Shown here piece by piece: positions 10,349 to 62,336 of a DNA stretch of 64,000 nucleotides. Origin of the DNA: Candidatus Latescibacterota bacterium (GTDB lineage: Bacteria; Latescibacterota; UBA2968). The first letter of the stretch is position 1. Each line of letters opens with the position of its first letter. The notes beneath the pieces are model-generated. The model had not been told where the DNA came from. It saw nothing but the letters and a program-made list of their open reading frames with translations, and ran no database searches. The stretch spans positions 1,376,001 through 1,440,000 of the forward strand of contig OZ240241.1 of assembly GCA_965198115.1 (NCBI GenBank), in the 5' to 3' direction. The position numbers and the translations under genes were made by a program.

Positions 10349-11557
10349 CTAGCGTCGTGCTTTCTTGGCTTTCTTTGCCGCCTTCTTCACTGCCCTCTTG
10401 ACCTTCTTTGCCGCCTTCTTCACGGCTCCTCTGGCCTTCTTCGCGGCCTTCTTGGCTGACCTCTTGGCTTTCTTGGCCGTCTTTTTTACGGTTGTAGCCG
10501 TCTTCTTCGCCGTTCTTTTCACTTTCTTGGCTGTTTTCTTTGCCGACCTCTTCGCCTTCCTGGCGGGTTTCTTCACCTTCTTTGCTTTTTTCGCTTTCTT
10601 GGCTGTTTTCTTTGCCGCTTTTTTCGCCTTTTTTGCCTTCTTCACTTTCTTCGCCCTCTTGGCCTTCTTCGCCGAAGCGCTCGCCGCACCCTCGATCCAG
10701 ACCCTGTCGCCATCGGAATCCAGGATCGGAAGTCGACCGCCGTGATGCACGCCAGGTCCGTAGAGAACGGCCTGCTGTTCCGGCGTCAGTTCATTCACCC
10801 ACTCGCCGTAGCGCTCCTGAGGCGTGAAGTGCTTGCCTACAGCACGTGCAGCGGCGCGAGATGCGTACTTGTAGAGGATGGAACGCCGGTCGTGATCGGC
10901 CGTCCACGGGAGCGTCCCGTGTGTCGCCGCTTCGGCGAAGAACAGCAGATCGCCCGCCTTCATTTCCACCTGCTCGACCAGACCCATGTCGTCTTCGTAG
11001 GTCCGAACTTCATTCGGCGTCGGCTCCGCGAGCTTATGACTTCCTGGAACGATCGCGAATCCACCGTCCCCCGGCCCGCAATCCGCCAGCTGCCACCCCA
11101 CCGTGATGCCACGACAGTAAATCTTGCCGTTCTGCTGGTGATACCACGTCGCCTGACTGAACGGCTCCCCCCCACCGTGGAATCGGTGGCCCTCGGACCC
11201 CTTCCTGGCCTGAATCATCATGGGGCCGTGGTCCAGGCGAAATCCCTTCCCGCTGAATTCATTCAAACGCGAGACGACGAATGGATGAACGAGCAGCTTG
11301 CGAAACGGCTCGCGGTAGTGCGGCTCCCACCCGAGCATGCCCGTCAATTCGGTTCGGCTCGACGATCCGGCCAATGACTTGGCACCGCGAGACAGACGAC
11401 CGGCTTCGAAATTTCTGGCCTGCGACATCTTGGCGTCGAGGGCGGCATTGAGTTCGCCGATTTCGCCCTGGCCGAGCACGCTGGGGATCACAAGGTAGCC
11501 GCGTAGATCGAAGAAGTACATCTCTTCGTCGGATACTCGGTGCACCTCGTAGTTCAT
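10349..11557 (-). CDS. PhyH-family dioxygenase fused to a ~110-aa Lys/Ala-rich histone-H1-like tail
   Basis: YFFDLRGYL, VPGSHK and THGTLPW, followed by KKAK/KKTAKK repeats. ATG at 11557 with RBS aaggag. Confidence 0.88.
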   Translation of the reverse strand: MNYEVHRVSDEEMYFFDLRGYLVIPSVLGQGEIGELNAALDAKMSQARNFEAGRLSRGAKSLAGSSSRTELTGMLGWEPHYREPFRKLLVHPFVVSRLNEFSGKGFRLDHGPMMIQARKGSEGHRFHGGGEPFSQATWYHQQNGKIYCRGITVGWQLADCGPGDGGFAIVPGSHKLAEPTPNEVRTYEDDMGLVEQVEMKAGDLLFFAEAATHGTLPWTADHDRRSILYKYASRAAARAVGKHFTPQERYGEWVNELTPEQQAVLYGPGVHHGGRLPILDSDGDRVWIEGAASASAKKAKRAKKVKKAKKAKKAAKKTAKKAKKAKKVKKPARKAKRSAKKTAKKVKRTAKKTATTVKKTAKKAKRSAKKAAKKARGAVKKAAKKVKRAVKKAAKKAKKARR

Positions 11558-48277: not shown

Positions 48278-49651
48278 GAGCTATAATCAAAAGGTGTGGA
48301 AAAAGAGAAAGGGCGACCCTACCCTTCCCGTGAGATAGTTGATTCACACAAAACCGGGTGAGAGGCCCGGTTGGGAAGGAGGATCGCCGTGAAGGAACAT
48401 ACGCATAGAGCCCCATTGAAGTCCATGCCGACGTGGGAGACGGTTGACGATTGGATCCGTGAAGAGATCCAGGGCCGGTTCCAGTCCATTCTGGAGGAGG
48501 AGGCGACCGCGTTCTTGGGCCGGTCGTGGTATGAGCGCCGAGCCGAGGTCGATAGCTCCACGGGCTACAGGAACGGCTACGGCAAGCCCCGGCGTCTCTC
48601 GACGAGCTGCGGAACGATCAAGGTCCGGCGTCCCCGGGTTCGTGGTCTGGAAGAGCGGTTTGAAAGCCGCATCCTCCCCCTGTTCGCCCGGAGAACCAGG
48701 GCCATTGGAGATCTGCTTCCCGACCTTTATCTCCACGGTCTCTCCCAGGGCGACTTCGAGTTGTCTTTGCGTGCGCTGCTCGGTGATGGCGCGCCGCTTT
48801 CGCCGACCTCGATCGCTCGTCTTCGAGGGAAGTGGGAGGTCGACTTCCAGGACTGGAAAGAAAGGCGTCTGGATAATCGCGAACTGGTCTACGCCTGGGC
48901 TGATGGCATCTACGTCAAAGCCGGGCTCGAGCGCGAGAAGGCGTGTCTGCTGGTCGTGATCGGCGCGATGAGCGACGGCAGCAAGGAGATCCTGGCGATA
49001 GAACCCGGTTATCGAGAGTCTACAGAATCCTGGCTCACGGTGCTCCGGGATCTCCGGGATCGCGGGCTCGAACATCCTGTCCTGATCGCCGCGGACGGGA
49101 ATATGGGCATCTGGGCGGCCGTTGATCAGGTCTGGCCAGAGAGCCGGCAACAACGGTGCTGGAACCACAAGATCCTCAACGTGCTCGACAAGGTCGCCAA
49201 GCGTGCACAGGCTGAAGCCCGCGCACTGCTCGTCCAGATCCCCTATGCCGGCACGAAAAAGGAGGCCGAGAAGCTCCGGAAACGCTTTGCCGCACGGTAT
49301 CGCTCACAGTTCCCTGCCGCCGTGGAGACGCTCGAAAGAGACTGGGATCGGATGGTCACGTTCTACGACTTCCCGAAGGAACACTGGAAACACCTGAGAA
49401 CCACGAACGTCGTCGAGAGCCCCTTTGCTTCCGTTCGGCTTCGCACAAACGCCGCCAGGCGATTCAAGAAAGTCAGGAACGCCACGACTCTCATCTGGCG
49501 TACGCTCAAGGTCGCAGAGAGCCGATTCAGGAAACTCACCGCGCCACACTTGCTACAACAAGTCTACGATCAGAAACACTCAACCGGACCGCAGGTCGAA
49601 GCCGGGAAGATGGCCGCCTGATTTCTTTTACACACCTATCGACCTGAACTC
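48278..49651 (+). mobile_element. IS256-A copy 5
   Basis: IRs present, with 8-bp TSD ctgacagc inside IS256-C. Confidence 0.95.
48371..49621 (+). CDS. IS256 transposase
   Basis: Near-identical to the other copies. Confidence 0.95.
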   Translation: MGRRIAVKEHTHRAPLKSMPTWETVDDWIREEIQGRFQSILEEEATAFLGRSWYERRAEVDSSTGYRNGYGKPRRLSTSCGTIKVRRPRVRGLEERFESRILPLFARRTRAIGDLLPDLYLHGLSQGDFELSLRALLGDGAPLSPTSIARLRGKWEVDFQDWKERRLDNRELVYAWADGIYVKAGLEREKACLLVVIGAMSDGSKEILAIEPGYRESTESWLTVLRDLRDRGLEHPVLIAADGNMGIWAAVDQVWPESRQQRCWNHKILNVLDKVAKRAQAEARALLVQIPYAGTKKEAEKLRKRFAARYRSQFPAAVETLERDWDRMVTFYDFPKEHWKHLRTTNVVESPFASVRLRTNAARRFKKVRNATTLIWRTLKVAESRFRKLTAPHLLQQVYDQKHSTGPQVEAGKMAA

Positions 49652-50119
49652 CTGACAGCGATGCACGCGCACATACCCTTTGAGGGCTTTGGTGACAGCA
49701 CTGCGGAGCCCCTTTGAGCCGTCAAGCACAACGAGGAGGCCTTGATCGTAGCACAGGCCTCTCCGGATGAGGTCCTGGATCAGCTGGCGGCAGATCCGTT
49801 CGTTCTCCGTCGCCGATTCGACGAAGCCCAGGGGGATCTTCTGGCCGTCCATCGTGACCCCCAGAGCGATCACGATCTCTTCGTCGGCAAAGCTCTTTCC
49901 GTCAATGAACAGGGTCACGAAGCCGTAGTCGTCGAGGGGACGCTCCTGGAACTGCTTCAGCTTCTTCGCGGTGGCTTTGATGAACCGCCGCGAGACGGAG
50001 GACGCTGAGATACCAAACGCTTCTGGAACCGATTCGGCACAGGCCTTGTAGTTGCGGCACGAGATCCCCTTGAGAACACGAAGCAACAGCCCCTCGTCCG
50101 TCTTCTTGGGCGTCTGTAG

Positions 50120-50913
50120 TGTGACGCCTTGCGATAATTCTCCGCCCGGCTTAAGCTATTCGCAGAATAGGCAGAATCGTTTCAATACGGTTAACAGTGG
50201 AGACCGTTCCCTAATGAGTTGAGGGTCACCTAAGATCTGGCGGCCATGCGACATAGTGCCATAGGAGTACTTACAAGGCGCAACGGCCAAAAGCGGTTGT
50301 CGGACCTACGCCTGATGTCCCTTTCTTTACGCGAACGCGTTTGGCACATTCCGGGGGATCGGGACGCGAAACGCTCTCGACCTCCGACGGAGTCCACGAC
50401 CGGCAGCACCGCCAGGGAGACGGCCGATTTTCTACCCCGCTTCGCCATTTTCGGGAAGCACCTTCAAAGCCGCCTTGTCGACAGACGCAAGCTCTTGTTT
50501 TTGCACTGGTTTAAGTGTTTCCGACACCTGAAAAAACCCCCTTTCGTCGACAACGGCCGCGATGCGCCCTCCGGAACGAAAATTAGGACGGATTAGTAAA
50601 AGAAACGGTCTCAACCGGTGTCCAAAAGAGAGCTGACCGTTTCCACCCCCCCTACCCCCCCGGTGCGGGCCTCGGGCCAGCGACGCGCCCAGGGCCAACA
50701 CCGCGCACCCCCCTATGCCCGCTGGGACCTGGCCTGACCACGTCTTGAGCCTAATCGGTCCTATTTCTCGCGGCGTGTGGGAAAATGAAAAAGGGCGCGG
50801 TCTACATCGGAACGCCCAGAGAGTTCATCCCCCTTAGCCCCGGGTCGTCAGTTCTTGGTGCGTGAGAATGCGAATAGCGTAACTTGGGAGGGAACCTATC
50901 GTAAGCCGTAACA
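50120..50913 (+). repeat. 794-bp MITE-like unit, copy 1
   Basis: About 45-bp imperfect terminal IRs. Apparently identical to 60674-61467. Confidence 0.9.
50230..50448 (-). pseudogene. Short ORF with terminase-small-subunit-like N-terminus
   Basis: MAKRGRKSAVSLAVLP, downstream of a G-rich cos-like motif. Confidence 0.35.
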
Positions 50914-51051
50914 ACTATGTCGCATGGCCGCCAGATCTTAGGTGACCCTCAACTCATTAGGGAACGGTCTCCACTGTTAACCGTATTGAAACGATTCTGC
51001 CTATTCTGCGAATAGCTTAAGCCGGGCGGAGAATTATCGCAAGGCGTCACA
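50914..51051 (-). repeat. Inverted copy of the first 138 bp of the 794-bp unit
   Basis: Exact reverse complement of 50120-50257. Confidence 0.92.
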
Positions 51052-51404
51052 GCACTCCTACCCTTACGGGTGGAGGATTCCAGCCGATCAATCTCGGTGA
51101 ATAGGAATGCACACTAGGAAGATACGGTTTCCGCCGGGATGGCGGCAAGGTGGAATGGGGAAATCTGGTTGTTGTATTGAAGGTTGGTTGGCAGAACCGC
51201 TCAGAGACCAGATGGGGAGAATTCCTAACTGTTCGTCGTCACCCGCCTATCAGATGGTTGTGCGAACGATTCGGGCGAGAGAACCGTGGGAAATGCCCGA
51301 ATAAGCGTGCAGAGGTAGAACGGATTCTGGAATGAGGTCCCTTCCAGATCGCTCCCCGGTTTTTATACCGTGTGTTTCTGTGACTGTCTCCCGAAAGCGC
51401 AGAC

Positions 51405-54400
51405 TTAAGCCGGAAGCCCCACAAATAGCCGACTCCACACATCCTCCAGCGAATCCACTTCGCCTGTTTCCGCAGCCCGTGCAAAAACAACTCCTGGGCG
51501 TCTCACATTGTGGGCTCTCGCAAGCACTCCATAGCCTTTAATCTCTGCCTGCAGCTCTTTGTCGAACTCCTCCATCTCGTGTACGATTCCCGCCAGGCCG
51601 CGCCGGGCACCCGGAACGCGCCCGAAGACCTCGGCAGGAGTCAGCCCTTCGGCCCACCCGTGTGGAATCGGTACCAGATTCATCTCCATATCTCGTACCA
51701 CACCGGCTCCCCCGAGATACTGTTTCAACTGACGCTCATTCCCTCGAGCACCGGACTTGAACATCAGGTTTATTGGCCCCCATCCATCGCCGTCGAATAC
51801 GTCCGACCTCACCACATAGCCTTCGATCTCCTGGGCATACGCCTGCCACTCATCCGCATCGTTTCCTTTAGGTTTTGGGGGCAGTTCCAGATCCGATCCT
51901 ACAAACGGTCCCATAGACAAGCCCAGCGTCTTTGCCACATCGTAGCCTCGATGCATCAGCTTCTGCGATACATCCAACGCAGCCTCGGGTCCTTCCCTGT
52001 CAAGAACTTCTGCCATCGCCTCAATCACGGTGGAATGAGTAACCATACCGTGCGTGGTGGCAATCGAGGCCCCGGCTAGCTCCTCGATCTCTCTCAGCCC
52101 CTCCGGTGATCTGCTGAGTTCCGCAAGCCCCATCATAGCGTCCATCCTGGGAGGTAGCGCCTGAATCAGTCCGGGATCTCGCCGGAGGTGGCCTGCCACG
52201 CTCAGGAGATCGGCCGCCTCCTTTTGTCCTGACTCGGTCAGGGGCAGGTAGACAGCTGCCTGATCTCCATCGAAATCCGCATTCATCATCTCGCAGACAA
52301 GCGGATGTACACGCAGCACATTTTCCGGAATGCGTCTCGGCCGGAAAACGACGAACGACATCGGGGCAACGGCAGGGGCCCGATAGAGAATCAACCACGA
52401 TGACGCCATCGCCTTGTCCAGCGCTTCGGCGCCCCTTTGGCTACGCTCTTGCACAGGCCTGGGATCTCCCAGCTCTCGAACGGCCAGAGGCCCGAACAGC
52501 GACCAAGCTATTTCTTCTGCCACGCCCAGCTCATCAATGCCCAGCTCAGGCCCGGGGGCAATCACCGTCCGTCCACTGAACAGAACGCGTGACTGGAACG
52601 CCATTTTGTCCGGGTGTACCAGCGCATCCAGATATTCTGCAACCCGGGCCCCCAGGTGCTCCGCAGCTTTGCGCGTAAGCGCCTCAGGCATCCCATCCTT
52701 CAGCATGCGCGACAACCGATCGTTCGATGCGGCCAGAGCAGCATATTCCACCAGATCCTCTGCAACCCCCACCACATCACAGGATCTGCTCGCATTCCAC
52801 GGATGCGGGACAGGCCTGATAAGCCCCAAGACATCGCCATGCGGCTCGACGAAGTCAAAGGTCAGCCTGGAGTCTCCGAGCGCGGCTCTGACTCCGCCCG
52901 CCCTCAACCCCTCCTGTATGCGCAGGAAACCGGCGCGAGGAGGTGCAGCCTGCGAGATGCTCCCTGAAGCCACGCGATCCTCCAGGGAGTCCGATCCCTC
53001 CTGTGCCGCCGCACACGTGTGGCTCTGCTCGCGGATGGTCTCGTATGCTCCAACGTCCGCCAGAACCCGATACTCCGTCTCCCCCATGGCCTGCCCACGA
53101 TAATCTCCGGGAGCCGTCCCCGAGTGGATCTTGTCCCTCACCAAGTGAGAAGTGACTCCCCAGTAGACCCAGCCAGCCGTACTTCGACGCTTCAGGGGAT
53201 GACCCTTCACCGTCAGCGCCTCCATACCATCTTCATCCAGCCCGGCATTCTGCAGCTGCTCGCGAAGCGCTTCTGCCTTGGGCGCTGAAAACGGAGGAAC
53301 AATGCACGGCGAACCGGTCGCCTTCGCGATCCGTCCCATTACTGCTTCCCGAACAGCGCCGTAAGCCATTCGGGACGGGAGGCTACATACGCTGTAGATG
53401 AGCTCAACGGGCGTCCCATCGGCGAGGGTTGGCATCTCCGCATCGGGCAGAATACGGCCGACCACACCCTTGTGTCCGTGGCGATTCGACAGCCTGTCTC
53501 CCACAGCAAGAATGTTAGGTGTCCGCATGCGGTCCGCACACGACTCGCTCACCACGATCGAATCCTCGAACGCATCCCCATCCCACGAGATGAACGCCGT
53601 CAACAGATTGTGTCCCATCCAGAAGAAGGGTGTGTCCGGCTCGTGTCCTGTTTGCACCAAAGCCGGTTCGGGCGCCATTCCCTCCGCTTCGCTCATCATC
53701 TGTTGATAGGCGTGGAAGTCACCGGCTTCCTGGATCGGCATCTCTGGATCAGGCTTTCCAATCCATTGGCGCATCATATTCACGCCCATAAGGATCCGGT
53801 TCGAATCGCTGTGCTCGAGGAAGGGAATCGATGCAGCGCCCATCCCCAGCGTGCCTTCGGGACTGTCGTCCACGATCACGATCCGGTCGTCTTGGATGGC
53901 GGCGCCCCGCGCAATCTCCAGAATCAACCCGATATTCGGTCCTTCCGGAGTGCAGAACGGGCAGACCCGTCCCTGCTGACTGGCGACTACTACCGGAATA
54001 CCCGTCAATCTGAACGGGGGCGCCGCTTCCCGTCCGATATGTTCAAGGGATAGGCGTCTCAAGTGCGTGTAAACGTCCAGCCAGTTCGTCACCTGCAGGT
54101 ACTGTGAACTACCCTGGTGTTGTCGGTATCGGCCGTTCAGATAGGTGTGCCACTGCCCGACGTGGAACTCCTGAAACCAATCGTCGATCGGCAGCCACGA
54201 TCTGGTCAGATCAGCATCCCAGGACAGGCTATGCGGGGCGTCTCCCAGACGTTCGGCTATGAAATCCCGCAGCTGATCTCCCACGCAGCTGATCTCCGCA
54301 TCAACCAGGTCCGGGGAGGATGCCAGCGGCACGACCACCCGGTAGCTCCCTTCTACTTTGAACACACCGGCATCGTCCGGTTTCGGCAGATTGTCGAACG

Positions 54401-54581
54401 AGAGCAGCACATCGCCGTCCGCGCCCTGAACGATCACTTCCACGCTACACGTGTATGGTCCTGTCGACTCCGTACGGTAGTCCACTAACGGCACCCGCTC
54501 TCTCAACAGATCGGGAAGGAATTCGTTGACGAATCGATCCCACGACTCCTTGTGCCAAGGGGCAGCATCATTCAAAGACAT
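51405..54581 (-). CDS. Miniaturised single-chain RNA polymerase beta-beta' fusion (RpoB/RpoC-derived, 1058 aa)
   Basis: beta motifs: CPFCTPEGPNIGL, IPFLEH.D.NR.LMG.NM.RQ, FEDSI, GDRLSNRHGHKGVV, PSRM, HLV.DK, GQ.MGE.E. beta' motifs: FSGRTVI, RAP, HPLVC..NADFDGDQ, SGARG, GARRGL. The ATG overlaps the sigma stop (TGATG). Confidence 0.92.
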   Translation of the reverse strand: MSLNDAAPWHKESWDRFVNEFLPDLLRERVPLVDYRTESTGPYTCSVEVIVQGADGDVLLSFDNLPKPDDAGVFKVEGSYRVVVPLASSPDLVDAEISCVGDQLRDFIAERLGDAPHSLSWDADLTRSWLPIDDWFQEFHVGQWHTYLNGRYRQHQGSSQYLQVTNWLDVYTHLRRLSLEHIGREAAPPFRLTGIPVVVASQQGRVCPFCTPEGPNIGLILEIARGAAIQDDRIVIVDDSPEGTLGMGAASIPFLEHSDSNRILMGVNMMRQWIGKPDPEMPIQEAGDFHAYQQMMSEAEGMAPEPALVQTGHEPDTPFFWMGHNLLTAFISWDGDAFEDSIVVSESCADRMRTPNILAVGDRLSNRHGHKGVVGRILPDAEMPTLADGTPVELIYSVCSLPSRMAYGAVREAVMGRIAKATGSPCIVPPFSAPKAEALREQLQNAGLDEDGMEALTVKGHPLKRRSTAGWVYWGVTSHLVRDKIHSGTAPGDYRGQAMGETEYRVLADVGAYETIREQSHTCAAAQEGSDSLEDRVASGSISQAAPPRAGFLRIQEGLRAGGVRAALGDSRLTFDFVEPHGDVLGLIRPVPHPWNASRSCDVVGVAEDLVEYAALAASNDRLSRMLKDGMPEALTRKAAEHLGARVAEYLDALVHPDKMAFQSRVLFSGRTVIAPGPELGIDELGVAEEIAWSLFGPLAVRELGDPRPVQERSQRGAEALDKAMASSWLILYRAPAVAPMSFVVFRPRRIPENVLRVHPLVCEMMNADFDGDQAAVYLPLTESGQKEAADLLSVAGHLRRDPGLIQALPPRMDAMMGLAELSRSPEGLREIEELAGASIATTHGMVTHSTVIEAMAEVLDREGPEAALDVSQKLMHRGYDVAKTLGLSMGPFVGSDLELPPKPKGNDADEWQAYAQEIEGYVVRSDVFDGDGWGPINLMFKSGARGNERQLKQYLGGAGVVRDMEMNLVPIPHGWAEGLTPAEVFGRVPGARRGLAGIVHEMEEFDKELQAEIKGYGVLARAHNVRRPGVVFARAAETGEVDSLEDVWSRLFVGLPA

Positions 54582-55186
54582 CAGTCTCCTCCCTCTCCCT
54601 CGAATCTCCGCCATTGTCGGGCAAGCTCCTTCCGGGCGTGATGAAGCCTCGACTTCACAGTGCCTTCCGGCACACCCAGCCGTTCGGCCACCTCGCGCAT
54701 CTCCATCTCTGCATCGTGCACCATCCGGACGACCTCGCGTTTCTCCTCCGGAAGCTCATCGATACGTCGCTGCAGCCACTGGTGTCGCTCACGCTGTTCG
54801 ACCCGAGCATCTGGGCCAAGTGAAGCGCTGTCAACGAGCCATCCAGGAGTGAGCGTATCGTCGTCATCCTGCACGCCATCGAGCCAGAGAACCGGCTCGG
54901 TCGGTGCCTCTCGTCGTCGACGGACCCACCGGAGGTGATTGTAGGCCAGGTGTGTGCCGATTCGAAGCAGCCACCCCTGCAGCGTCCCGCGGCATTCCCA
55001 CTGATCGGCCCGGCTCCAGAGACGGATAAACACCTCCTGCACCAGGTCTTCAGCCGAGGCAGAATCGCGGACAATTCTGTTAACGCAGGCCTTTATCTGT
55101 CCCTCAAACCTGTCGAAAACGACCTCGAAAGCCTGTTCGTCCCGGTTCAGGATTCTGTTCACAAGCTCTCGATCCGTCTCTGCCAT
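54581..55186 (-). CDS. ECF (sigma70 group 4) sigma factor
   Basis: Region 2 AEDLVQEVFIRLW...WLLRI..HL.YNHLR, and region 4 LPEEKREV...EVAERLGVPEGTVKSRLHHAR. Confidence 0.93.
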   Translation of the reverse strand: MAETDRELVNRILNRDEQAFEVVFDRFEGQIKACVNRIVRDSASAEDLVQEVFIRLWSRADQWECRGTLQGWLLRIGTHLAYNHLRWVRRRREAPTEPVLWLDGVQDDDDTLTPGWLVDSASLGPDARVEQRERHQWLQRRIDELPEEKREVVRMVHDAEMEMREVAERLGVPEGTVKSRLHHARKELARQWRRFEGEGGD

Positions 55187-55204
55187 TCGGGATCCCCACC
55201 TTTA

Positions 55205-55231
55205 AGGACACCACAAATTGAACCGAGTTCA
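55205..55231 (-). promoter_or_regulatory. Candidate autoregulatory ECF promoter
   Basis: Minus strand TGAACT-N16-GTCCT about 20 nt upstream of the sigma ATG. The -35 lies in the palindrome TGAAC-tcg-GTTCA. Confidence 0.45.
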
Positions 55232-55688
55232 TTCGATTATCGACATCTTCTACAGACTGCGCAGATGGCACAGACATTGTACTCCAGCTGTACCATCCCT
55301 CGCAGCTCGTTGCGGATCCAAGAAGAATGGGCACGTCCTCTACCTTCTAAGGACATGCCCAAATCTGAAAACAGGTTTCAGGTCAGTTGCGCCCCGTTCC
55401 AATGGCATTCCGGGGATACCGAGGGGCTAAGGGTTCAGCGTTCTACCGATGCGTGCCACTTAAAGTATTTCGCTCTGCCCTTGTTCCAGGCGGTCACTTT
55501 CCTACCTTGCAGGATGTCAAGCTTCCATCGACCGACTCTCGGTCCGCCTCACACACAACAAGCCTCATACAACAACTAGGCACACTCGCCGGTTTACTTG
55601 ACGTAACGTGCTCCTTTTCGGTAGCCTGTTCCTTACGTGCGTGGCGGTCACCAGCTTTATGGCCCTATGTCCATGCGCAACCCGTCGC

Positions 55689-56218
55689 GGTCAAGTCCCA
55701 TAGTCAGTTGAAAACTCATCGGGCCCCGTAGTTTGGTCAGGCTCTCTTTTGAGCATTCTGTTCGTTGTCGAGATTCAGATCTTTGTTCAGTGCTTGCCTG
55801 AGTAGGGGAAGATGTTTGTATCCGCTCACGCGTCGCAGGCGAGGTTCGATGTCGAGGAGTGCGGCAGCCACCCATCTGTGTCTCTGGGGAGAGTTGTTCC
55901 AGCGTCTGACCTTCCGAGTGAGCTCGCCGGTCATGCTGTTGAGGGCTTCGATGCAGTTGGTGGTTCGGAAGCTTCGTTTCAGGAATGGGAGCATACCCAG
56001 CCGGTGGAGGGTCAGGGTTTCCTCCAGGCCTCCTCGTTGTGCTTGACGGCTCAAAGGGACTCCGCAGTGCTGTCACCAAAGCCCTCAAAGGGTATGTGCG
56101 CGTGCATCGCTGCCAGTGGCACAAGCGCGAGAATGTCGTCAGCTATCTCCCGGAGAGGGAACGTCCAAGACTCTCTTCGTCGGCAAAGCTCTTTCCGTCA
56201 ATGAAGAGGGTCACGAAG
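55689..56218 (-). mobile_element. Scrambled IS256-C remnant (3' end plus an inverted and a deleted internal piece)
   Basis: 55689-56031 matches the IS 3' end, about 56030-56170 is an inverted internal piece, and about 56172-56218 is another internal piece. Confidence 0.85.
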
Positions 56219-57111
56219 TGTTCGCGACGTCTGTTGTGTCGAAAGACGAACTCATCCAAGTAGACTTGGAGCTGTTCACGACTGACGCCGTGATGCGTGC
56301 CAACCAGCCATTGCTGAAGGTTTCCGATCGCTCGGTCCACCAGAGGCACCACGGATTCCGCTCCCTTGCGAAGTTCCGCCCGATGCGGCTGGGAACGGGC
56401 AACGTGGTAGCCTTTCGCGTTGAGTTTCTCAAAACTCTTGAGTCCGTCAGTGTGGATCGTCGAGCCGGGCGTGACGTTCTGTTTGGCGAAGTCAACGAAC
56501 GTTGTCGACTTGAAATCTGGAATCACGGTCATGCGGAGACGCCCGGATCTGTTTGATCCGCGTTTCTCTACAGCAACCAGTACGAGCGCCGCACGGCGGC
56601 CCTTGAGCTGTCGGCTTCCGCGGAGTCCGGGTTGAGGCCCGCCGATCCAGGTGTCATCGATCTCGACCTCTCCGTGGAGGGGTTCACGCGCCTCATTGAC
56701 CATTGCTCGTCGAAGCTTGTGAAGCATCATCCAGGCGGTTTCGTAGCGCTTGAGCCCCAGTTGACGCTGGATGAGAAGCGCCGAGATCCCACGTTTGTCG
56801 GTGGTCATCAGGTAGGCAGCCCAGAACCAAGCCGTCAGCGGCGTTTTCGTCCTGTGAAGAACCGTCCCGGACGTCAGCGACACTTGATGCCTGCAGGAAA
56901 ACACACTCCCACTGTCGGCGTTTGGCGACCGTGTAAGCTCGATCGTGACCACAGCGTGGGCAGACGAAACCGTCAGGCCATCGACACATCGCCAGGTAGT
57001 CTTGACACGCCTCTTCGGTAGCGAACTGGCGCTGAAACTCGCTCAGGTTTTTCGGGAACGGAAGTCTTCGCACGCCCGAACACTACATGATAGTGCCCTC
57101 CTGAGTCAACC
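56219..57111 (-). mobile_element. IS1595-family element, frameshifted and 3'-truncated
   Basis: RWPDGFVCPRCG, SGTVLHRTK, EIDD, IHTDG, GTHHGVS and YLDEFVFRHNRR. Confidence 0.88.
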
Positions 57112-57129
57112 AGGATCGGATTCCGCTCA

Positions 57130-57600
57130 AACAGACTGTTGCGGAGTTCTTCAACGGTGGTCTTGAAGTAACGCACCCAGAGCAGGTTCTCCTTGAGAAT
57201 GCGGATGAAACGCTCGGCGCAACCCCTTCCTTCCGGGCACGCACAAAGCTTGGCGAGGCCTCGATACCCTGGGAGGCGATCTCGAAAGGCGTCAGAGACG
57301 TATTGGGACCCGTTGTCGTGACAGACGCGGGCGAGGCCTTGAGCGATGTCCTTTACCAAGGCGCCGAAGTGACGGCGGACGCCCTGTCGTGCAGTGATCG
57401 ACCGCCACGAACACACTTGCCGTGCCTTCCCCGGTCGTGATCGTCTGAGTCAGATCCGTGCCCACATCGCGTCAGGGATCGGAGTCGTGATCGTGCCGTC
57501 GTGGGCTGAGGACCGCGGCGTGACCCTGTCCGATTGGGTGCCTGTGAACCGTTCTCACGCATCAGACTGTCCTCCTACAGTTCCAGCACACATACAACCA
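57130..57600 (-). pseudogene. Heavily degraded IS3/IS481-type integrase remnant
   Basis: HDNGSQYVS and AERFIRILKENLLW. Confidence 0.6.
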
Positions 57601-58295
57601 CCGGTGGATCGTCCAGCGACACGGCTACAAGACGCCGACTCAAGTCCGAGCCGAGAAACTGGCGGCCAGACGCGCCGACTGAATACACTCACTGGCGTGC
57701 CAGGTTACGCAGGGCTTTATAATCTTGGACCTGGAGCGGATGCCGTTTCAGCGCTGGGAAGCAGCCCCGCAAGCAGCCTTTTCGAGTTGCAATCCCTTAC
57801 GCGGCGTATGTCGACTGTCCTTGACCAGTCCCGGATACCGAGCGTCCGGCACTGAGGTGCTACGGCTGTCACAAAGCGTTCTCTGCGGCGAGCCCCTCTT
57901 ACCGCGTTAGCTCGACCGAGGACACACCCGAAAGATCGGCGATTGGGAGATCGGCGGCACCTTCGTCCGCCGGGCAGCATGCCCGAGGCCAGATCGTCCA
58001 AGACCGCGTCGGCCAGACTGCCCGGCCGTGAGCGTCCAGCGCCCCAGCGAGTAGGATTCCCCGATCCGGCACATCTGGTCCCGGCCAGCCTCAGACAAGA
58101 TTGCAATCCGCGTCGATTGCCACTCCCGACGACGCTCGGCCCTGGTAGGTTCGCCGGCGCCTTCGCATCCGACAGCAGCCCTCGCCGTCGGTGAACGGAG
58201 TCCCGCGCGCCAGACGGTTCTTCAGCTGTACGCGCATCTCCTGAGGGTCGCAAGAGATCGTCTTCGTCGAACGCCGCCCTGAACGACGGCGGGCA

Positions 58296-59678
58296 TCAGC
58301 TTGTATCCGTCCTTCCGCCTCCGGCCTGAAAGTCGCCCAGGTCCTGCTCGTAGAGGCGCTCGAGCAGGGCCTCCCTCCGGCTCTTCGGCAGGGCTTTGAA
58401 GTTCCGCGCGTCATCGGGGACCGGCGCCACCGCCGCGACGGTAGAGGCCCGGTCGTCGACCCACACCACGAGGCGCGACGGGTCCTCACGTTCGCGCTGG
58501 AAGCCCACCGTCACCTTCTGGCCCACGACCGAGAGGAACGGCTCCCTCCTCGGCAGCTGCCACGCCTTCCCGCAACACCGCACCGTCAGGTCCCCGCGCA
58601 CCACGGCCTGGACGCGGTCGTAGAGGTAACGCTCCCACACCTCAGAAGGCATCACACGCACGGCACCGGCCAAGCCGGCCGACCACCTGAGAAACGGCGG
58701 CTCGGCCGTCACGGCGTGCGCCCGGGCGTTGACTTTGTGCAACAGATCCAGCAGCAGCGCGTTGGCCTCCTCCAGAGAAAGACGCACGCCCTGGTCGACG
58801 TGCACACGCAGCAGCGCCGTCAGCCTCCGCTTGAGCGTTCCGATCTGCCGCTCCACCTTTCCCTTGGCCGCCGGGTTCCCCACGCGGTGACGCTTGAACG
58901 TCACGTCCACGTCTTGAATAAACTGCCGGAACAGCGACGACTGCGGCGCGCTGTCGTTGTCCGAATACAACACAACCGGACACCCGCAGAACGGGAACGC
59001 CGCTTTCTCCTCCCAGGCCCGTGCGCAGAAGTCGACCCAGTTGAGCGCGTGCTTGCCGAAATAGAGCCGTGCATACGTCGCCCGCGAATAGTCGTCCACC
59101 AGACAGAACAGGTGCAGGCGGGGGCGCCCGTTCCGGGAACGCGCCCTCCCTTTTTTCTTATCCGCCGCGCCGATCGAGCCGTCGGGTGCGACGAAGTAGC
59201 GCGGCAGCTCCGTCACGTCCAGTTGGTGCAGCCCGTTCGAATGAGGCGCCTCCCAACGCCGGTGCGGCACCGTCTTGAGCCGGGACGTGACCGGCCCGGT
59301 CAGCCGCCTCGGCGCCGTCAGCTGCTTCAGGCTCACCCCACGGGACCGCAAAAAGCCGTTATACGTCGACACCGAGATCGCTTTCGGGGCGATCCAGCCC
59401 TGAGCCTCGGCCTGCGCGATCACGGCTTCGGCCGTCATCCCGTAGCGCACCGTCAACGCCATCATCTTCAGCATCGCGCGGTCGCTCACGTCCACCCGCC
59501 GCCGTCCCTGGTCGGAACGCCTGGACCGCCGACCCTCCTGCCCGACCCACCGGTAGACCGTCGACACGTGAACGCCCAGCGTGTGCGACCACCCGTAGAC
59601 CGCGGCCGTGAACGCGCCCCCTTCCAACCCCCGGCACGAACGACGCACCTCCTCGATGATTTTTGGACCATACGCCAC
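58296..59678 (-). CDS. Mu/B3-type DDE transposase (integrase); C-terminus probably frameshifted
   Basis: N-terminal HTH (VSTVYRW, RRSDQG) and DDE core HQLD...VDDYSR...LYSDN...NPAAKGKVER. Confidence 0.85.
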   Translation of the reverse strand: MAYGPKIIEEVRRSCRGLEGGAFTAAVYGWSHTLGVHVSTVYRWVGQEGRRSRRSDQGRRRVDVSDRAMLKMMALTVRYGMTAEAVIAQAEAQGWIAPKAISVSTYNGFLRSRGVSLKQLTAPRRLTGPVTSRLKTVPHRRWEAPHSNGLHQLDVTELPRYFVAPDGSIGAADKKKGRARSRNGRPRLHLFCLVDDYSRATYARLYFGKHALNWVDFCARAWEEKAAFPFCGCPVVLYSDNDSAPQSSLFRQFIQDVDVTFKRHRVGNPAAKGKVERQIGTLKRRLTALLRVHVDQGVRLSLEEANALLLDLLHKVNARAHAVTAEPPFLRWSAGLAGAVRVMPSEVWERYLYDRVQAVVRGDLTVRCCGKAWQLPRREPFLSVVGQKVTVGFQREREDPSRLVVWVDDRASTVAAVAPVPDDARNFKALPKSRREALLERLYEQDLGDFQAGGGRTDTS

Positions 59679-59729
59679 GGCAGACCTGCCTTTCCTTTGT
59701 AGCCCCTTGTCTTAGGGGGCGGAGACGCC

Positions 59730-60575
59730 TCAGTCCTCCACGCCGGATACGCCCTCAGCGATGTGGAACCGCGTATCGGAGAGCCCATCGGGCGTCAGGA
59801 CGTGCACGATACCCGTCACCTTCTGGCTCAGCGTGCAACCGAACGCCTGCACGGCGTCACGAACGGGCGCCTTTGACAACCCTTGATCGCCATATTCTTC
59901 GGCATACTCCAAAGCCATACGTTCGAGCACCCCGACAACCCGGATCGCACGCGCGAACTGCGCCTCAAGCCGTATCAGCGGCGGCTGCGCGTCCTCGCCC
60001 TCACGCAGCAACCGGTTCTCGGCCGCCAAACCCCGTGATCTCGCCTGCTCCGCCCTCAGCGTCCCCCGGAGCGCCGCGTTTTGCCCTCGCGACTGCCGCA
60101 GTGCTGCCTGAAGCTGCCGGTAACCCATCGTGGCCACGTCGTCCAGTTTTCTTCCCAGAAACGATTGACGCGACATCGCCTCCCTCATCTCCTCATCCGA
60201 CACATCCAGAAGCGCAAGCATCTTCTTCTTCGAATCCCCCGAAACAGCCTTCAAAAATGACCGCGCGAGCGGACATTCCGACTCCACAACACGCTGCGCC
60301 ACGCGCATGAACTCCGAACTGCGCTGACGGCTCATCCCCAACTCACCAACCCACGCCACGAACCGGCCGTGGCCGATCGTCCCTTTCACCCAGATCAGAT
60401 ACTTCCCGATCGTCACCATCTCCTCCAAGACGCTCATCCCCACGTCCAGAATCCGCTGCTTGATACGATCCAGATCGAAATCAAGACCGTCCTGATACGC
60501 CGCCAGATCCGGCGCGGCTTCCGAGGCGGCGCCTGCAGACCTACGGCCAGATGTCGAAACCTCCGAATCCCTCAT
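59730..60575 (-). CDS. DUF3102-like phage protein
   Basis: IGKYLIWVK....HGRFVAWV...GMS.....FMRVA. It lies directly upstream of the transposase, as in transposable phages. Confidence 0.75.
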   Translation of the reverse strand: MRDSEVSTSGRRSAGAASEAAPDLAAYQDGLDFDLDRIKQRILDVGMSVLEEMVTIGKYLIWVKGTIGHGRFVAWVGELGMSRQRSSEFMRVAQRVVESECPLARSFLKAVSGDSKKKMLALLDVSDEEMREAMSRQSFLGRKLDDVATMGYRQLQAALRQSRGQNAALRGTLRAEQARSRGLAAENRLLREGEDAQPPLIRLEAQFARAIRVVGVLERMALEYAEEYGDQGLSKAPVRDAVQAFGCTLSQKVTGIVHVLTPDGLSDTRFHIAEGVSGVED

Positions 60576-60673
60576 TCCGACCTTCCTGTCATCAACGATT
60601 CCGGCTTTTTGCCCGGCGAGAGCCGCGACCTACCCTTACCTCCGCCCACACATCCTCATCCCATCCGCTCCAT

Positions 60674-61467
60674 TGTGACGCCTTGCGATAATTCTCCGCC
60701 CGGCTTAAGCTATTCGCAGAATAGGCAGAATCGTTTCAATACGGTTAACAGTGGAGACCGTTCCCTAATGAGTTGAGGGTCACCTAAGATCTGGCGGCCA
60801 TGCGACATAGTGCCATAGGAGTACTTACAAGGCGCAACGGCCAAAAGCGGTTGTCGGACCTACGCCTGATGTCCCTTTCTTTACGCGAACGCGTTTGGCA
60901 CATTCCGGGGGATCGGGACGCGAAACGCTCTCGACCTCCGACGGAGTCCACGACCGGCAGCACCGCCAGGGAGACGGCCGATTTTCTACCCCGCTTCGCC
61001 ATTTTCGGGAAGCACCTTCAAAGCCGCCTTGTCGACAGACGCAAGCTCTTGTTTTTGCACTGGTTTAAGTGTTTCCGACACCTGAAAAAACCCCCTTTCG
61101 TCGACAACGGCCGCGATGCGCCCTCCGGAACGAAAATTAGGACGGATTAGTAAAAGAAACGGTCTCAACCGGTGTCCAAAAGAGAGCTGACCGTTTCCAC
61201 CCCCCCTACCCCCCCGGTGCGGGCCTCGGGCCAGCGACGCGCCCAGGGCCAACACCGCGCACCCCCCTATGCCCGCTGGGACCTGGCCTGACCACGTCTT
61301 GAGCCTAATCGGTCCTATTTCTCGCGGCGTGTGGGAAAATGAAAAAGGGCGCGGTCTACATCGGAACGCCCAGAGAGTTCATCCCCCTTAGCCCCGGGTC
61401 GTCAGTTCTTGGTGCGTGAGAATGCGAATAGCGTAACTTGGGAGGGAACCTATCGTAAGCCGTAACA
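60674..61467 (+). repeat. 794-bp MITE-like unit, copy 2
   Basis: Direct repeat of 50120-50913 at an offset of 10554 bp. Confidence 0.9.
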
Positions 61468-62336
61468 TCTGTAGAGCCCGGTATGCAGCCAGGGAAACCT
61501 CTGCGTCGGCCTCGACGTCGCGCACCCGGGGAACGTCTAACGGGAGCTTCTGGTCCATCAGATACACGGATCCCTTCTGGCTTCCCCACCGACGATGCGC
61601 CTGCTCCGAACCTTTGCGCGCATACCGAACACCTGCGAGCTGCTCGACCTCCTGCTGGAGGAGGTCTGCCACTGCCTCCAGACCCAACGGGATCAACGCC
61701 TGGATCACCGACAAACGCGTCTCCAAATCGATGCCATCGCCCTCAACCTTGACTTCACCATCGCCTGCAAATAGCTTCTCCATCTGGGCTCCTTTCTTAC
61801 GGGTATACGCTCCTACACGTCTACCCAACGTAAGTTTGGAGCCCTCTAAGTTTCAACTACGATAGGCACAACACCGATGAACCAAGGCATGCCGATCCTC
61901 CTTGACACAGCAACACACGTTCAGTCAGACTTGAATTTTCGGGAGGCACCCATCGTCAATCCATTGTTTGAACCGAGTTCGTCCCCACAAGGTTCAACTG
62001 GTTTGCATTCCTTGCCCTGGCCTCTGCGCCGCCACAATCATTCGGGCACTGCTCAGGCCTTCTGAGCGAAGTTGATCGACGTCAATCCATGCTGTCAGAG
62101 ACGATCAGGATGCTCGCAGACGCTCCTTATCTGCCTTTTGAGAGGTCCAGAGTGTATATCTGACCTGCACGAATGAGATGGACATTCTTTAGCCGTGCGC
62201 CGGGTGCTGGCCCTCCTGCCTGCAGGATCTGTTCCAGTGCCGTGATCCGGCCTTTGAGCGGATAGATCCCCGGACCCGAACGGTGCTCAGCAAGAAAATG
62301 CCGATTAAGTGAGCCGAGCACATAGACTTTCTTGCT

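Follow-up and report, generated by a model that had tools for sequence, protein, structure and literature searches.

How did a locus for a sigma factor and a single-chain RNA polymerase come to lie inside an insertion sequence, between two identical non-coding repeats? The arrangement occurs in a genome of Candidatus Latescibacterota bacterium (GCA_965198115.1, assembled as one contig, OZ240241.1), within positions 1,376,001 to 1,440,000 of the forward strand; this stretch of 64,000 nucleotides is called the window below. The host genome is very rich in IS elements. An earlier reading, made from the letters of the sequence only, had proposed a recent composite transposition or cointegrate driven by a non-autonomous mini-element, and this proposal is supported by the existence of a MITE family to which the repeats belong, by a target duplication found only at the outer edges, and by the standing of the two repeats as the sole identical pair of that family. 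We consider it likely that the repeat, present as an identical pair around this cargo in a split IS256, is a natural mini-Mu, built of the two ends of a Mu-like transposable phage and moved by a phage-family DDE transposase with a 7-bp stagger. The features on which the argument draws are given below in window coordinates.

49652..50112, minus strand: part of an IS256-family copy left of the insert, truncated at 49651 by an IS256 of a second type
50113..50119, plus strand: left 7-bp target duplication, TCTGTAG
50120..50913, plus strand: left 794-bp MITE copy, TGT...ACA, with 45-bp imperfect terminal repeats
50914..51051, minus strand: 138-bp piece of a third MITE copy in inverse orientation, equal to unit bases 1-138
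51405..54614, minus strand: 1069-aa single-chain beta/beta-prime-like RNA polymerase with an NADFDGD motif
54581..55186, minus strand: 201-aa ECF sigma factor, overlapping the start of the polymerase ORF
55689..57636, no strand assigned: patchwork of IS fragments (IS256 pieces, an IS1595-type ORF and pieces resembling a 17-copy rve-type IS)
57950..58295, minus strand: decayed, out-of-frame 3-prime transposase tail and the DNA after it
58296..59678, minus strand: MuA-like DDE transposase, 460 aa
59730..60575, minus strand: DUF3102 protein, one gene upstream of the transposase as in related phages
60667..60673, plus strand: inner flank of the right unit, GCTCCAT
60674..61467, plus strand: right 794-bp MITE copy, same sequence as the left
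61468..61474, plus strand: right 7-bp target duplication, TCTGTAG again
61475..61875, minus strand: IS256-family copy right of the insert, reaching its terminal repeat

The element proper occupies 50120-61467 (11,348 bp). The sequence-only reading had placed it at 50113..61474, and both of these edges are real, but they take in the two duplications. The 794-bp units, which it had described as apparently identical direct repeats, show no mismatch in pairwise comparison (50120-50913 against 60674-61467), the match stops at both unit boundaries, and the 9.8 kb of cargo between them lies entirely inside the split IS256. Its claim that the IS256 copy was split at a duplicated TCTGTAG is also correct: this heptamer occurs only once in a 1388-bp intact IS256 copy, at position 981, the window halves join exactly there, and 39 other matches run through the position of the split uninterrupted. 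Chance agreement of random 7-mers in this genome is 0.00011. The label ‘LTR-like’ that accompanied these claims is misleading, and an LTR retroelement was rejected as a candidate, given that no RT domain is present in the eight insert ORFs (among 15 scanned) and that the unit has inverted ends of its own and moves by itself.

Each unit begins with TGT and ends with ACA, and its two ends agree with each other at 33 of 45 positions, forming terminal inverted repeats in which every 45-bp end carries one motif at positions 12-17 and a second at 34-39, a spacing of 22 bp. The longest ORFs within a unit are of 116, 89 and 72 aa, and its six-frame translation gave no significant match to 27 related loci, in keeping with the earlier description of imperfect inverted repeats that enclose no transposase. 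Copy number and duplication length, suggested then as a check, set the unit apart as a multi-copy element. The genome holds 16 two-ended copies besides the window pair, and the 7-bp duplication is exact at 12 of these, matched at six of seven bases at one and absent from three; an exact 5- or 6-bp duplication was found at none of the 16. Unit length across 17 aligned copies is 751-823 bp, a size at the upper limit of that given for prokaryotic MITEs, 50-800 bp (PMC11602168). The unit is a genome-wide prokaryotic MITE with a fixed 7-bp duplication. No sigma-70-like site was found in a search for an outward promoter in the right unit.

No autonomous element bearing the ends of the unit was found in the genome. 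Apart from the unit family, no genome sequence beginning with TG reaches 30 of 45 against a unit end, and the multi-copy IS elements examined have different ends, with duplications of 8-9, about 8 or about 15 bp. A nucleotide search for the unit covered 132 genomes of the class (four candidates per genome scored), and those other than G000 yielded only chance-level matches of 28-36 bp. The exact end pattern had no match across the genome contig collection, and end patterns in the viral contig collection gave 13 matches and one match, none of which was judged to be an element end; some of the end patterns used in this work were fitted after the ends of the G072 prophage described below were known. 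Two 154-bp pieces in G004 have similar starts (29-30 of 45), for which a partner end and a duplication were not found, and an end-pattern match in G060 looks like chance.

The cargo itself contains a candidate source of the enzyme. What had been called a DDE integrase does keep its catalytic residues (D154, D240 and E276, invariant across 16 alignment rows), but it is the truncated MuA-like gene of a decayed transposable prophage. The protein has 460 aa, compared with 523-550 aa in 15 aligned homologues, and is frameshifted near its C-terminus. The tail region at 57950..58295 has three partial copies elsewhere in the genome, and the frameshift is common to both of those that span the frameshifted stretch. 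The protein matches the phage profile phrog_310 (E 4e-27), its predicted fold is like those of TnsB (E 3e-16), IstA (7e-14) and, behind these two, MuA (5e-8), and where the context of homologues was read, they occupy phage gene neighbourhoods, with the order DUF3102-A-B plus virion genes. In the window, the DNA upstream of the DUF3102 gene is cut off by the right unit. The insert holds no cognate B-type AAA ATPase, and the best AAA match in the genome, an ExeA-like gene, has host genes around it. With 412 query ORFs taken from G072 and from four related phage loci, the genome gave no match to terminase, portal or capsid; a portal profile search of the genome was empty, as were its control profiles. 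The DDE protein of the insert is a MuA-like remnant truncated by a frameshift.

The link between this remnant and the MITE comes from G072, a genome of the same class with a prophage that carries genes for a transposase, an AAA B protein, terminase, portal and capsid. The transposase of this prophage and that of the window share 39% identity, and the two fall in one clade (support 100/99) with the enzymes of the G132, G133 and G135 phages outside. The window protein has a long branch and skewed composition in this tree. The G072 homologue came from an alignment search; searched singly, the window transposase found nothing in the genome contig collection and one weak match in 60 relatives, which do not include G072, and against 50,697 deposited phage records this phage clade has best matches of 23-26% identity (query P0001). 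One G072 end could be placed independently of the MITE, at the divergence point of two copies. It has CTTGCGATAATT in common with the MITE left end, at positions 9-20, and agrees with the MITE at 26 of 45 positions for the left end and 27 of 45 for the right, either score being reached at only 2 of the 319,955 positions of G072 DNA compared. The other G072 end scores 26 of 45 against the MITE right end (four positions reach that), and the motifs at 12-17 and 34-39 of the unit are in register with both prophage ends. The first G072 end was spotted by a score scan in which one non-end site ranked above it (30 versus 28). More distant phage ends agree less, at 16-17 (G132), 12-13 (G133) and 9-10 (G135) of 45. 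The likeness is limited to the terminal 45 bases or so, and blastn of the whole unit against part of the G072 DNA gave no match. Judged by sequence, then, the MITE ends are like the G072 prophage ends and the two transposases are kin. The 7 bp would be the stagger of the phage-family enzyme, a length taken from the MITE copies alone because intact phages of the family yielded no duplication length; the flanks at the three G072 ends do not match, and the contig of the G147 prophage ends before the prophage does.

The best-surviving alternative, which we nonetheless regard as unlikely, is that another DDE enzyme of IS21-, IS481/IS1202- or Tn7-like type drives the MITE and that the phage remnant is a mere passenger. 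TGT ends with tandem sites are common to these families, and in Tn7 the sites are about 22 bp apart, as in the unit. The window transposase has weak IS481 and IS21 scores (87 and 70 bits), IS21-like remnants exist in the genome (a 47-bp left-end fragment of the unit at genome position 25523 adjoins one), and the resident Mu-like gene is broken. However, the ends of the unit occur on no resident element, the multi-copy IS elements examined duplicate other lengths, and the unit ends match those of a prophage with an enzyme from the same clade as the window transposase. Both scores of the protein are below cut-off (224 bits for IS481 and 160 for IS21), and no IstB match was found among the cargo ORFs scanned, so that we do not assign it to IS21. 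Nor do we place it in IS481/IS1202, where duplications, in the available part of PMC10045372, are mostly 6 or about 15 bp (IS481) and 5-6, 15-17 or 24-29 bp (IS1202). Unlike Tn7/CAST and IS21 elements, the insert has no TnsC, TniQ or IstB partner, and those homologues of its enzyme for which the context was read lie in phage neighbourhoods.

If a phage-family enzyme moved the MITE, the pair in the window still has to be accounted for. An exact 7-bp duplication flanks the pair as a whole, whereas the own flanks of either single unit have four mismatches. The two are the only identical copies among the 17 aligned (the next closest pair is two substitutions and one gap apart), and they carry a private one-base insertion missing from the 15 others. 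The earlier account was right about the two-unit outline, but it overlooked a third end: unit bases 1-138 recur without a mismatch, in inverse orientation, at 50914-51051, where they abut the left unit. We consider this fragment best read, from its sequence, as a nested insertion. The inner flank of the left unit, ACTATGT, consists of the first seven window bases of the fragment and would be the nested target site; that of the right unit, GCTCCAT, is unlike both ACTATGT and the outer TCTGTAG. None of four junction patterns for donor-site scars was found in the assembly.

Two other histories could give such a pair. The same outline would result if a solo copy had entered the IS256 first and a circle of cargo plus one copy had later joined it by homologous recombination. 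The copies show mosaicism, in that 880 of the 1891 informative pairs of sites fail the four-gamete test, and the closest other copy, at 97.6%, is a solo copy inside an IS256. This history is nevertheless improbable in our judgement, somewhat below a different enzyme, given that the pair is identical although all 16 distinct copies differ, and a crossover of two differing copies gives two different hybrids. Lower again we place the chance flanking of the cargo by two older, independent MITE insertions, followed by cut-and-paste movement of the composite. That simple insertion occurs is evident from the solo copies with clean duplications, and MITE-bounded composites are known (PMC13367494, in the part available). 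However, independent copies here always differ and the pair does not, and neither an excision site nor matching inner flanks were found in the assembly.

Least probable of all is an assembly artefact, in which an unrelated segment would have been set between collapsed repeats by opening a solo copy in IS256: such errors could arise in so IS-rich a genome, polishing could make a pair identical, and the outer junctions and the 50913/50914 join are unbridged among the short-read contigs listed, but the cargo has single-copy depth and no second place in the assembly, the pair has its private insertion, and contigs 51025-55715 and 58333-60702 (zero and one differences from the window) reach unit ends on both sides. 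These two contigs enter the inner left ends by 27 and 29 bases, under a bridging rule of 31 bases, and a further contig spans 56176-58028 with no differences. In run X3, from a second sample, contigs that cannot show absence cover parts of the cargo and hardly any of the unit.

Replicative transposition by a phage-family enzyme is the reading that we prefer, and transposition of the Mu type is described as causing deletions, inversions and replicon fusions (PMC8705779, in the part available). One MITE copy would have sat upstream of the decayed DUF3102-transposase genes and attacked another that lay inverted some 9.8 kb off, and the 138-bp stub and the two unequal inner flanks would be what remains of that event. 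Identical copies would then have been set at both edges of the cargo by replicative transposition, as the outer ends of the pair joined the IS256 site. This may have happened within one cell, where a deletion circle formed and then cointegrated, or through delivery in phage particles, as laboratory mini-Mu is delivered; the product would not differ between the two routes. The enzyme may have been that of a helper phage, or of the resident gene before or after loss of its tail, a part of the scheme to which we give less weight. In Mu, target immunity is lost when the B ATPase is missing, and such a loss in an insert lacking this ATPase would fit a nested insertion. We entertain more tentatively, as a doubtful extension, that an undescribed clade of Mu-like phages with a 7-bp stagger exists and gave rise to a natural mini-Mu family that spread in this genome, that this family delivered the self-contained sigma/polymerase module from another cell in a natural counterpart of mini-Mu transduction, and that the tail-less enzyme may act without B ATPase or target immunity.

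The module itself belongs to a widespread family, present in 30 of 60 relatives, and is a passenger in this insert. In a quick polymerase tree, the window protein falls outside the group with the same-family orthologues, a signal too weak for a claim of horizontal transfer. The earlier claim that the locus had been mobilised holds insofar as the outer duplication attests to it; this duplication is the only ground for the term, as the assembly yielded no donor site. Regardless, the sigma factor and single-chain polymerase are of interest in their own right.

The composite architecture is already known. In TIME-COMP elements, two non-autonomous copies bound and move DNA, as the directly oriented units do here; TIMEs, according to the available part of PMC13367494, are derived from the Tn3 family, whereas our unit is longer, has phage-like ends and probably has its cognate transposase gene lying broken in the cargo. 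Engineered mini-Mu and mini-D3112 also resemble the unit, having phage ends without lethal functions and a MuA-like enzyme, but the unit is natural, non-coding and genome-wide, makes a 7-bp duplication and has no B protein that we could find. The term ‘mini-muduction’ denotes host DNA inserted between two mini-Mu copies of the same orientation. Mu, B3 and the Leptospira prophages (proposed Saltoviridae) share TG...CA or TA ends and a MuA-like DDE enzyme with the insert, which differs from them in its 7-bp duplication, its 11.3 kb and its lack of virion genes and a B gene. The available part of PMC8705779 gives duplications of 5 bp (Mu) and 6 bp (B3, Leptospira prophages) and genomes of 36-39 kb, figures against which 7 bp is unusual, as had been remarked from the sequence, and describes mini-Mu elements as laboratory constructs. 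Our limited search of the MITE literature, including PMC11602168, encountered no mention of Mu-derived MITEs.

If correct, this natural, multi-copy family would add the ends of transposable phages to the known sources of MITEs. The 7-bp duplication would likewise widen the 5/6-bp scar used for finding transposable prophages and, as it falls outside this rule, such a clade could be missed at present. A 7-bp stagger would also offer a natural comparison for what determines stagger in MuA/TnsB enzymes, and the unit ends together with an intact enzyme of the family are candidate genetic tools. For the organism, the insert would mean that about 10 kb of host DNA was moved in an uncultured lineage.

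As the sequence-only reading had it, the insert is bounded by two identical 794-bp units, with identity ending at both unit edges and the 7-bp duplication TCTGTAG on either side of the pair. The target is a single site, position 981 of an intact 1388-bp IS256, where the two IS256 halves in the window join, and it is unbroken in 39 other matches spanning that position. The element measures 11,348 bp and its cargo 9,760 bp, arranged as follows.

50120-50913: left 794-bp unit
50914-51051: unit bases 1-138 repeated exactly in inverted orientation, a third end that the sequence-only reading overlooked
51405-55186: ECF sigma and RNA polymerase pair (also at L083:7720-11738 and L006-L019)
58296-59678: DDE transposase
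60674-61467: right 794-bp unit

The inner flanks, ACTATGT and GCTCCAT, differ from one another and from the outer duplication. The insert is not an LTR element, contrary to its original label; by the features tested, it is a MITE-bounded composite. Short reads containing the stretch come from three runs, all of the same study and representing no more than two samples, and because the best run may be the source sample, these runs are not independent. Cargo contigs have depths of 11.7-13.5 and 8.6-10 in runs X1 and X2, respectively (right flank, 11.8 and 6.2), and extend 27 and 29 bases into the unit ends; no short-read contig bridging the outer junctions is present among the matches listed.

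By the features tested, the 794-bp unit is a MITE. A blastn search of the host genome (8.43 Mb, one contig) returns 26 matches: 17 copies are uninterrupted (the window pair among them), a further copy is split by IS into three matches, and six matches are fragments. An exact 7-bp duplication flanks 12 of the 16 other two-ended elements, against a chance rate of 0.00011 for such a match; one more carries a 7-bp duplication with one mismatch, three have none, and exact 5- or 6-bp duplications occur at none of the 16. Among the 13 exact targets, positions 2 and 6 tend to be C/G and the middle positions A/T, a preference to which the inner flank ACTATGT conforms. When aligned, the 17 copies (751-823 bp) are 90.8-97.6% identical to the window copy, and no two of them are identical except the window pair. 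Mosaicism is evident among the 16 distinct sequences, in which 880/1891 informative site pairs are incompatible (near, 58/285; far, 579/1118). Unit ends are 45-bp imperfect repeats agreeing at 33/45 positions, with a motif at positions 12-17 that is repeated at 34-39. That the closest other copy likewise lies within an IS256 is in keeping with a young subfamily. Portions of the MITE interior (unit bases 130-539) without ends are found at G000:C1:8396846-8397023, 8402803-8403001 and 8403224-8403439 of the host genome, with another small repeat after them; of these pieces, one begins at unit base 130, at most 2 bases from the nested target site (132-138). At G000:C1:25523-25565, a 47-base left-end fragment with a 4-base deletion is fused to IS21-like sequence.

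The protein previously called a DDE integrase does have a DDE/rve core, but it is not intact: it is a truncated remnant of a phage transposase. Its 460 residues best match phrog_310, and D154, D240 and E276 are invariant in an alignment with 15 homologues of 523-550 residues (identity up to 60%). Homology carries on in other frames beyond the stop codon. This frame damage is judged to be real because a run X2 contig crosses the frameshifted stretch without gaps and two partial gene copies elsewhere have identical frame breaks. The predicted structure (pLDDT 72) resembles TnsB, IstA and MuA, and related loci place DUF3102, transposase and AAA ATPase genes together among phage genes. A search of the host genome with 412 related-phage ORFs recovered, apart from the DUF3102 and transposase genes, only a handful of generic host-type matches, and the sole strong AAA match reads as an ExeA-like gene surrounded by host genes. 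In phage Mu, the MuA transposase remains catalytic when it lacks its tail, and loss of the B ATPase abolishes target immunity. The transposase 3′ end and downstream DNA recur as three partial copies (95-98%) at G000:C1:117762-118008, 4614919-4615130 and 5660750-5661089, one of them just past an IS256 that abuts a duplication-less MITE copy.

Among 168 genomes of the phylum, eight, including the host, match the transposase profile, and the best of the others is G072 (E 2e-175). Its prophage, approximately 41 kb when summed from coordinates over two contigs, encodes transposase, B ATPase, terminase, portal, protease and capsid; the transposase is 39% identical to the window enzyme, and the two fall in one clade with 100/99 support. 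One G072 end was fixed independently as the divergence point of two copies. This end and the MITE left end both carry CTTGCGATAATT at positions 9-20, and it agrees with the MITE ends at 26/45 and 27/45 positions, levels each reached by 2 of 319,955 positions. The other, found by a score scan in which a non-end site outscored it, agrees with the MITE right end at 26/45. For phages not in this clade, agreement is lower (G132, 16-17; G133, 12-13; G135, 9-10 of 45). A two-site end pattern, fitted after the G072 ends had been seen, matches 37 times in the host, in G072 at the three phage ends and nowhere else, at two related 154-bp pieces in G004 and once in G060 among the 168 genomes, and its reversed control gives two matches. 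The 7-bp duplication is known from MITE copies and the composite; intact phages of the family gave no readable duplication. The Mu-like G072 prophage (G072:C1:33336, C2:9859, C2:4131971) has one TG end, one TA end and divergent early and late genes, and its flanks do not pair as a duplication; G072 also carries a second partial copy. G004 carries two 154-bp pieces (L120:1501-1654 and L123:1501-1654; 92% alike), in both of which 29-30 of the initial 45 bases agree with the MITE ends; neither a partner end nor a duplication was found.

The best explanation, which we consider likely, is that a natural mini-Mu-like unit was copied by replicative transposition and inserted the cargo via its outer ends, using an enzyme of the G072-type phage family. 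The outer duplication shows a single event in which both outer ends joined one target, and the sequence identity of the two units favours copying of a single unit over two old insertions. The 138-bp stub and unequal inner flanks would follow if one unit had previously attacked a copy lying inverted 9.8 kb away, and a deletion circle followed by cointegration would give the observed product. Replicative phage transposition yields deletions and replicon fusions, according to PMC8705779. None of the four predicted donor-scar patterns was found in the genome, and thus the DNA would be of external origin or its donor lost. Phage-packaged delivery could yield the same product.

The insert probably works like a mini-Mu composite. 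TIME-COMPs are likewise MITE-bounded composites (PMC13367494), and the composite architecture is already known. A transposable phage is rejected because the insert lacks both a B gene and virion genes and has a 7-bp duplication; PMC8705779 reports 5 or 6 bp for such phages, consistent with the earlier remark that 7 bp is unusual for Mu-type enzymes. Resident ISs are ruled out as the source of the unit ends by differing ends and duplication lengths: among 12 seeds examined from a genome with 37 rve matches, four had no second copy, four yielded only partial elements, and in multi-copy ISs for which both ends were recovered, the ends are unlike those of the unit and the duplications measure 8-9, ~8 or ~15 bp. 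No TG-starting position elsewhere in the genome scores at least 30/45 against the unit ends. The protein falls under the IS21 and IS481 cut-offs, and these identities are rejected, IS481/IS1202 also by comparison with PMC10045372. Mu is not mentioned in PMC10969869 or PMC11602168, as judged by text search, and no report of natural mini-Mu MITEs or mini-muduction was found in the literature searched, which excludes most subscription papers. The IS load of the host is very heavy (matches spanning the seed: ISL3, 224; two IS256 types, 132 and 39; IS630-type, 71; an rve-type IS with ~15-bp duplications, 16). Separately, window positions 10370-10634 hold degenerate tandem repeats whose minus-strand reading appears lysine/alanine-rich, suggestive of a putative histone H1-like protein.

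The sigma/mini-RNAP pair attributed to the insert is present, but it is a passenger rather than part of the element, given that it is widespread in relatives and the host carries a second pair. The 1069-residue protein fuses beta-like and beta-prime-like parts, and its predicted structure (pLDDT 91) resembles the cellular chains. Among 54 aligned sequences, conservation is 90% or higher at the DFDGD aspartates and the beta-side lysines, although the window protein has R at one of these lysine positions. The polymerase seems to keep helices resembling the sigma-binding clamp, and the beta flap is apparently missing; RNA polymerase activity and sigma binding are predicted functions. Of 60 relatives, 30 have long matches (family size 1030-1070 residues), and a related ECF sigma (48-54% identical) lies upstream in 8 of 14 relatives' loci taken with 1.5-kb flanks. 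A protein search gave 899 matches at E ≤1e-30, possibly counting ordinary subunits; the 120 listed are full length and carry source names from five phyla (Poribacteria, Hydrogenedentes, Chloroflexi, Gemmatimonadota and Armatimonadetes). The literature searched surfaced papers on YonO/NCgl1702-type enzymes and no description of this family, nor does the available part of PMC2919709 contain one. The single-chain polymerases and their dedicated ECF sigma group may merit separate study.
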